Shown: one piece after another, positions 42,342-45,300 of the stretch | How the letters are laid out: every line of letters starts with the position of its first letter | Numbering within the stretch: the first letter of the stretch is position 1 | Assembly (NCBI RefSeq): GCF_057098645.1 | Contig: NZ_CM169472.1 | Direction: 5' to 3' (one strand) | DNA: 64,000 nt | Made by a program: the position numbers

Positions 42342-45300
42342 TGACACTAACGCCCGCACATTGCTGCGGGCTTTTTGATTCATTTCGCAAATGTGCTGAC
42401 ATTTTCCCCTCTAATCCGTACCATACACGCCACAGTTTTTATATCAGATTTCTTATGCTGGGCGTTCCGGCATGACGCATACTCTTCTGATGCCATATAA
42501 CGAATTGAGTCGCTTTTAAATGTCGCAAAATCAAGAAATTAGCAAGAAAGAACAATACAATCTGAACAAATTACAAAAACGCCTGCGTCGTAACGTGGGC
42601 GAAGCCATTGCTGACTTCAATATGATTGAAGAAGGCGATCGCATCATGGTTTGCCTCTCCGGGGGTAAAGACAGCTATACCATGCTGGAGATTCTGCGCA
42701 ATTTGCAGCAAAGCGCGCCAATCAATTTTTCGCTGGTGGCTGTTAACCTCGATCAAAAGCAACCGGGCTTCCCGGAACACGTTCTGCCCGAGTATCTTGA
42801 AAAGCTGGGCGTTGAGTACAAGATTGTTGAAGAGAACACTTACGGTATCGTGAAAGAGAAGATTCCAGAGGGCAAAACCACTTGCTCACTGTGTTCTCGG
42901 CTACGTCGCGGTATCCTTTATCGCACCGCAACGGAACTGGGGGCGACGAAGATCGCGTTGGGCCACCATCGTGACGATATCCTGCAAACGTTGTTCTTAA
43001 ATATGTTCTACGGCGGCAAGATGAAAGGTATGCCTCCGAAACTGATGAGCGATGATGGCAAACATATCGTTATTCGTCCGCTAGCCTACTGCCGCGAGAA
43101 AGATATTCAGCGATTTGCCGATGCAAAAGCGTTCCCGATTATTCCGTGCAACCTGTGCGGTTCACAGCCTAACCTGCAACGTCAGGTGATTGCTGACATG
43201 TTGCGTGACTGGGATAAACGTTATCCAGGGCGTATCGAGACGATGTTCAGCGCGATGCAGAATGTGGTGCCGTCGCATCTGTGCGATACCAACCTGTTCG
43301 ATTTCAAAGGCATCACCCACGGTTCTGAAGTGGTTAACGGGGGTGATCTGGCGTTTGATCGCGAAGAGATCCCACTACAACCGGCGGGCTGGCAGCCAGA
43401 AGAAGATGAAAATCAGTTGGATGAGTTACGGCTGAATGTGGTTGAAGTGAAATAACCAGGATAGCGCCCGATGCGCAAGCGTATCGGGCTACTCTTATGG
43501 AGGCCGGATAAGACGCGGCCAGCGTCGCATCCGGCAATCCCGAATAAGATGTTTACTCTTGCACCCGGCAATTCAACATTTTATTATTTTAATAACCGCA
43601 CCCGGCACGTTTTTCCTTTAATCTTCCCGCCCTGTAACTGTTTCCATGCTTTATGAGCAACAGCCTGACGGACCGCGACATAGACATGCGCCGGATGCAC
43701 GGCGATTTTGCCAATATCTGCGCCATCAAGCCCGATATCTCCTGTCAGTGCACCTAATACATCACCCGGGCGCATTTTGGCTTTTTTCCCGCCATCGATA
43801 CACAACGTTGCCATTTCTGCTTCCAGCGTCACAATGGAACTATTAGCTGGCGGCGTTTGCCAGTTAAGTTTTATCTGCAACATGTCAGAAATGATATTGG
43901 CCCGCAGTGCTTCTTCCGGAGCACAGAAACTGATCGCCAGACCGCTATTTCCTGCACGAGCTGTACGACCGATGCGATGTACATGAACTTCAGGGTCCCA
44001 CGCCAGCTCAAAGTTCACCACCAGCTCAAGCGATTTAATATCCAGACCACGCGCAGCAACATCAGTCGCGACCAGTACACGGGCGCTACCGTTAGCAAAA
44101 CGTACCAGGGTCTGATCGCGATCGCGTTGCTCCAAATCGCCGTGTAATGACAATGCACTTTGCCCTACTTCATTCAGCGCGTCGCAGACAGCCTGGCAAT
44201 CTTTTTTGGTATTGCAAAACACCACGCAAGAGGATGGCTGATGCAAGCTTAATAACCGTTGCAACAGAGGAATTTTGCCTTTGCTGGATGTCTCATAAAA
44301 TTGTTGTTCAATGGGTGGCAAAGCATCTGTTGAGTCAATTTCAATCGCCAAAGGATCGCGTTGCACTCGTCCGCTGATTGCGGCGATGGCTTCCGGCCAG
44401 GTTGCCGAAAACAGAAGCGTCTGTCGAGATGCTGGCGCAAAACGGATGACATCATCAATGGCATCGCTAAATCCCATATCCAGCATGCGGTCGGCCTCAT
44501 CCATCACCAGCGTATTCAACGCATCCAGTGATACCGTGCCTTTTTGCAGGTGATCCAGCAAACGCCCCGGCGTTGCCACGATAATATGCGGCGCATGTTG
44601 CAACGAATCACGCTGCATACCGAACGGTTGACCACCGCACAACGTCAAAATTTTGGTATTTGGCAGAAAACGCGCCAGCCGACGCAATTCACCTGCCACC
44701 TGATCCGCCAGTTCACGCGTAGGACACAGCACTAAAGCCTGGGTTTGAAATAGCGACGCATCAATTTGCTGTAACAAGCCGAGGCCAAAAGCCGCCGTTT
44801 TGCCGCTGCCGGTTTTCGCCTGCACGCGAACATCTTTTCCGGCAAGGATCGCCGGAAGCGCGGCGGCCTGCACCGGCGTCATAGTTAAATAACCCAACTC
44901 ATTAAGGTTCGTGAGTTGGGCGGGAGGCAAAACATTCAGGGTAGAAAAAGCGGTCACAATCTATTCTCGTGGTCATCGACGCAAAGTTAGCAGGCGCGTA
45001 TCCTCGCAGATCTACGCTCACGATGCGACAATTTAATCGGTTCTTCATCGGGTGGTGGGTCAGGCATGGGTTGCGGGCGAGGGATCGGATCGGGCACTGG
45101 AACAGGATCGCCAGGAATCGGTTCAGGGACAGGAATTTGCAAATAAATAAGTGTCGTCATATTTCCCTCCGGTCATTGGGTGGACTCTTAAAGGGTAGAC
45201 GCTGATAAATAACAGGCAAAAAAAAGCCGACTCATCAAAGTCGGCGTCGTACGAATCAATTGTGCTATGCAGTAATTCAAAAAAGGAAGTAAGACAATAT

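Follow-up and report, generated by a model that had tools for sequence, protein, structure and literature searches.

We found that the 64-kb stretch of DNA analysed here (the window), from an O145:H28-type E. coli, carries an unoccupied attB of Rac and Rac-like lambdoid prophages. Nothing we found speaks against the site being empty, and four observations leave us with very little doubt on this point: the flanks are syntenic with those of Rac in K-12, phage DNA is absent, the attachment core is present in a single copy, and ttcA has its native N-terminus.

The uspF-ttcA junction in the window and in K-12

The bacterial gene bordering the Rac site on the left is uspF (universal stress protein F; 41910-42344, plus strand), an ORF with an AGGAGG ribosome-binding site upstream. 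Its product of 144 aa scored 303 bits against the NCBIfam UspF equivalog model (cut-off 166), and RefSeq gives the uspF label to 100%-identical DNA in E. coli O145:H28 RM12761. On the other side lies ttcA (tRNA 2-thiocytidine(32) synthetase; 42520-43455, plus strand), which has the native, non-lysogen N-terminus MSQNQEIS; its product of 311 aa scored 514 bits against the NCBIfam TtcA equivalog model (cut-off 272). The original prediction put the gap between the two genes at about 175 bp, and the ORF coordinates give exactly 175 bp (42345-42519, plus strand). This spacer is the native upstream region of ttcA and does not contain the att core. It was compared with the 176-bp spacer between uspF and ttcC' in K-12, and the sole difference was one extra T in K-12. 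An ORF scan of 42345-42519 found no integrase or phage ORF between uspF and ttcA, and the complete uspF-ttcA stretch of 1618 bp is 100% identical to RM12761, where RefSeq annotates uspF and ttcA alone.

RefSeq annotation of E. coli K-12 MG1655 gives the gene order dbpA, ttcA (b1344), Rac, ttcC' pseudogene, uspF, ompN, ydbK. The cryptic prophage Rac occupies 1411899-1434958 (intR, xisR, ralR, recT, recE ... stfR, tfaR, pinR, ynaE), which bears out the statement in the original prediction that the ~23-kb Rac of K-12 adjoins ttcA on the ynaE/uspF side. The Rac feature begins 50 bp into the ttcA gene; ttcC', the pseudogene, measures 51 bp.

The window was compared by BLAST with 97 kb of MG1655. 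On the uspF side, window positions 35529-42569 were colinear with K-12 1442000-1434959, and on the ttcA side 42527-49468 were colinear with K-12 1411941-1405000. Both flanks were 98.6-99.2% identical to K-12, with breakpoints at 42569 and 42527 and thus an overlap at 42527-42569. The 23 kb separating the flanks in K-12 had no counterpart in the window, and the Rac interior gave no matches when it was searched against the whole 64 kb (blastn, word size 11). The genes around the site are housekeeping genes and IS elements. Aligned around ttcA and intR, the two chromosomes have colinear flanks, with Rac located at the junction in K-12 and missing from the window. The earlier description of this junction as an unoccupied attachment region was therefore confirmed by K-12 flanks in the same relative orientation, no phage DNA, one core copy and the native N-terminus.

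The spacer had also been said to hold a terminator and the ttcA promoter. Directly after the uspF stop codon, a pattern scan found an intrinsic-terminator-like hairpin, GCCCGCA-CATTGC-TGCGGGC followed by TTTTT (42352-42376, plus strand; hairpin 42352-42371). The hairpin has seven pairs, six of them G-C, and its RNA fold has an energy of -14.1 kcal/mol (z = -3.4 against shuffles). With its G+C-rich hairpin and U-run, we regard 42352-42376 as a putative rho-independent terminator of uspF, in keeping with the first half of the claim. The second half fared less well: the promoter amounts to a weak sigma-70-like consensus match, CTGACA-17-TACCAT (42396-42424, plus strand; 9/12 positions), and this one match in the spacer is no better than chance, with 0.6 expected per shuffle. 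It is a plausible candidate for the native ttcA promoter. An RNA gene in the spacer was rejected, as an Rfam scan of the whole window placed no family there; the matches were solely to FnrS, MicC, McaS and an IS3 ALIL pseudoknot.

Several further features of the window were noted in these comparisons. The small RNAs MicC (40291-40411, minus strand), FnrS (45222-45339, minus strand) and McaS (48717-48812, plus strand) are at their K-12 syntenic positions by Rfam. Relative to RM12761, the window has just 13 substitutions over ~45 kb, and it is without the ISEc8 that RM12761 carries in aldA (window 1685-1692) and the ISEc20 near the alpha/beta-hydrolase genes (~62686). Given the few substitutions and these IS differences, the window strain is close to RM12761 but distinct from it. 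A 1307-bp IS3-family element (8806-10112), 99.8% identical to O145 IS3-family transposase copies and containing the ALIL pseudoknot (9662-9778, minus strand), splits ynbD, which is uninterrupted in RM12761 and K-12; no complete genome of the collection had this insertion junction at comparable identity. Further K-12 segments are missing as well. At 19297-19300, the paa operon lacks ~5 kb that in K-12 (1458231-1463183) extend from the end of paaF into paaK, a deletion common to RM12761, where RefSeq annotates a partial gene. At 17367-17421, between paaY and pdxI, the window has no ydbA autotransporter pseudogene locus, which in K-12 takes up ~8.6 kb with its IS2 and IS30; RM12761 lacks it too. 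At 57226-57229, there is no counterpart of the K-12 IS5F copy between ynaI and ynaJ. The feaR gene is annotated in RM12761 as a pseudogene with an internal stop (corresponding to about 30245-31150 of the window).

Directly upstream of pdxI (ydbC), 175 bp (17192-17366) are inverted with respect to their flanks in comparison with K-12 (92.6% identity) and RM12761 (100%). One breakpoint falls in the loop of a terminator-like hairpin (AAACCGCAAC...GTTGCGGTTT) and the other 2 nt before the pdxI ATG, so that pdxI is severed from its native upstream sequence. An inverton was considered here, and no terminal inverted repeats were found at 17192-17366. Among 5426 complete genomes of E. coli, none had the inverted orientation, which could reflect a mutation specific to this strain, an error of assembly or an introduced change.

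The attachment site within ttcA

When the window was aligned with both K-12 junctions, attR and attL, the extended att similarity was seen to span 50 bp at the start of ttcA (42520-42569, plus strand). The similarity between phage and host opens at the ttcA ATG and closes after CTGAACAA. Rac-like phages duplicate these 50 bp as a diverged copy of their own, and in K-12 they are left as ttcC'. Within this segment, the 26-bp sequence AAGAAAGAACAATACAACCTGAACAA is identical in K-12 attL and attR. The attB core of the window, AAGAAAGAACAATACAATCTGAACAA (42544-42569, plus strand), agrees with it at 25 of 26 positions and corresponds to ttcA codons 9-17; the single mismatch, C to T at 42561, is synonymous. 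When up to three mismatches were allowed, this was the only copy of the core in 64 kb, with 0 expected by chance. The original prediction proposed to look for the att core within 42345-42540; it was not found there, since it lies just beyond that range, inside ttcA. An attL within the ttcA coding region has been described (Liu et al. 2015, Sci Rep 5:16074, PMC4632033), and Rac integration has been placed at the 5' end of ttcA (Ramisetty & Sudhakari 2019, PMC6379469).

The window had further been proposed as a clean reference for the Rac attB. This has to be revised, as T at 42561 contrasts with a perfect core in K-12 and in 5/5 other empty genomes. The window attB is not the canonical reference because its core is a lineage-specific variant. 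At 42543, 42561 and 42582 the window reads C, T and C, while all five of the other empty genomes sampled read T, C and T. RM12761 shares the window bases at these positions and K-12 differs; all three changes are synonymous and fall within the first 63 bp of ttcA. Those who use this sequence as a reference should take 42520-42569 as the att site and 42544-42569 as the core, both in ttcA, and note that the allele is one base off the common core.

A natural lysogen allowed us to place the crossover. The closely related O145 strain RM9873-C1 has a Rac-like prophage adjoining ttcA, exactly at this site, with intR, xisR, ralR, recT, recE, kil and ydaT/U/V. Its attR matches the window through 42560 and continues with the phage C at the equivalent of 42561, CTGAACAA and phage DNA. 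Its attL carries the phage GAT at the equivalents of 42552-42554 and matches the window from 42555 onwards, T at 42561 included. If the ancestor of this one lysogen had the window allele, segregation of these natural markers would put the net crossover for Rac-type integration within ATACAA (42555-42560, plus strand). As the RM9873-C1 junctions derive from exactly this allele, the attB of the window is probably competent for IntR-mediated integration, and the idea that T at 42561 makes an integration-resistant attB was rejected because RM9873-C1 integrated into it. The 42561 polymorphism might mark the edge of the overlap region and could influence how efficiently, or how reversibly, integration proceeds in the O145:H28/O157:H7 lineage. 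We consider this a long shot; if true, it would help explain the switching of the site between empty and occupied states in O145:H28/O157:H7.

The prophage of RM9873-C1 (NZ_CP031347.1) has been rearranged. From ttcA it runs into ydfJ (a Qin-type site), and the uspF-side attR is found ~250 kb off, inverted, beside tail-fibre genes and a frameshifted nleC. The split junctions therefore point to a large chromosomal inversion between two lambdoid prophages. With its far end abutting ydfJ, RM9873-C1 was rejected as one half of a simple occupied/empty pair.

Integration and the TtcA N-terminus

The route of integration is as follows. Rac-type phages encode the tyrosine integrase IntR and the excisionase XisR, and their attP bears a divergent duplicate of ~50 bp from the start of ttcA. 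When the short shared core at ttcA codons 9-17 recombines, the phage is inserted between uspF and ttcA. The phage copy substitutes for the first codons of ttcA, which leaves the gene intact, and the original 5' end remains beside uspF as the ttcC' pseudogene. Integration also parts ttcA from its native upstream region, which stays by uspF in front of ttcC'; in a lysogen, ttcA is preceded by phage DNA, the 3' end of intR. In the window, such an integration either has not taken place or has been exactly reversed: one core copy, the native N-terminus and the native 175-bp upstream region are present, the last of these with the putative terminator of uspF and a presumed promoter of ttcA.

TtcA starts with MSQNQEIS in the window, as against MQENQQIT or MQENQKNT at seven lysogen attL junctions. 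Upstream of the core, the phage has a divergent form of ttcA codons 1-8, and TtcA of lysogens therefore begins with one of the latter two sequences. In the K-12 lysogen the form is MQENQQIT, and MSQNQEIS can be read from K-12 attR/ttcC'. A four-residue change in TtcA upon Rac excision has been reported (Liu et al. 2015, PMC4632033), and the same four-residue difference separates the window from the K-12 lysogen.

The site is similar to the attB of K-12 Δrac, with its TtcA' (Liu et al. 2015, PMC4632033). Both have uspF and ttcA as flanks, the first 50 bp of ttcA, the MSQNQEIS N-terminus and a single 26-bp core. The window differs in its synonymous bases C 42543, T 42561 (in the core) and C 42582, in having a spacer of 175 bp rather than the 176 bp of K-12, and in its O145:H28-type EHEC background. 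The same attB is used by Sp10 (O157:H7 Sakai), CP-933R (EDL933) and the ttcA prophage of RM9873-C1, the junctions of the last being recombinants of exactly the window allele. In those genomes the site is filled: intR-xisR lie next to ttcA and TtcA has an N-terminus encoded by the phage (MQENQQIT/MQENQKNT), whereas the window is empty. Prophages e14 in icd and DLP12 at argU also integrate into a gene end that is restored by a phage-borne copy (PMC6379469). In these systems too, a surrogate gene end in attP keeps the target intact and a pseudogene fragment is found at the far junction; however, what Rac swaps is the 5' end of the target, start codon and upstream region included, while e14 swaps a 3' end.

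Distribution and history of the empty site

We found uspF and ttcA to be contiguous in 2487 of 5410 complete E. coli genomes (46%), and a K-12-type intR abutting ttcA in 1879 of 5403 (35%). Some of the roughly 2900 genomes in which the two genes are split match intR over no more than its final ~280 bp. One of these, ST131 O25:H4 strain CU568-3 (NZ_CP082775.1), represents a third state, with a 2.3-kb remnant between uspF and ttcA; the remnant contains a truncated integrase of 231 bp, a fragment of a DUF1627 gene and a frameshifted 'metal ABC transporter permease', and the ttcA N-terminus is of the phage type. Many O157:H7 genomes are empty at 99.8% identity (e.g. EC4115, TW14359 and Xuzhou21). 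Among complete genomes, a contiguous and 100%-identical uspF-ttcA was found only in RM12761, RM13516, C325, Z1323HEC0422 and Z1323HEC0399. As the nearby pdxI locus has a match of about 100% in ~24 complete genomes of the O145 type, these five make the empty state a minority in the lineage.

This minority status, together with the occupied site of RM9873-C1, is what would be expected if a Rac-like prophage had recently been lost from the sub-lineage by precise IntR/XisR excision, as opposed to the site never having been occupied; Rac and Sp10 are both reported to be excision-proficient (PMC4632033). However, precise excision restores attB exactly, so that excised and never-occupied sites have the same sequence and give no signal either way. 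The window retains the lineage's own T at 42561 and no phage-derived base, which is compatible with either history provided that integration and excision recombine at one and the same position. Recent loss is put forward tentatively, as a reasonable possibility.

A second consideration is that a Rac-type prophage may reside at another locus, outside the 64-kb window, in which case the absence of Rac would hold for the ttcA site alone. We think this unlikely: the Rac interior had no match anywhere in the window, and the search for intR-ttcA mostly returned a single matching place per genome (median 1, maximum 2). There are nonetheless precedents, as rac of CFT073 is integrated elsewhere than ttcA (Liu et al. 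2015, PMC4632033), EHEC genomes have many lambdoid prophages with shared modules, and the ttcA prophage of RM9873-C1 has recombined with one at ydfJ. Finally, it is barely conceivable that the 175-bp spacer is itself the attachment site or a prophage scar, as the coordinates of the original prediction implied: a remnant does persist at this junction in some genomes, such as the 2.3 kb with a truncated integrase in ST131 CU568-3, but the spacer of the window agrees with the one between uspF and ttcC' in K-12 and with those of other empty genomes (alignment score 171-175 of 175), which ruled out a scar, a search of 42345-42519 for the att core gave no match, and both K-12 junctions map inside ttcA.

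An unoccupied Rac attB within ttcA is an ordinary state and agrees with earlier work (Liu et al. 2015). It had already been published that Rac integrates into the 5' end of ttcA, that ttcC' arises as a duplication and that the N-terminus of TtcA changes. The suggestion that the junction could be used for strain typing was reasonable, since the state of the site varies among E. coli as a whole, within O145:H28 and within O157:H7, and it can therefore serve as a typing marker. For the O145:H28-type strain studied here, the region provides a correct negative annotation (no prophage) and a usable presence/absence marker, of modest practical value.
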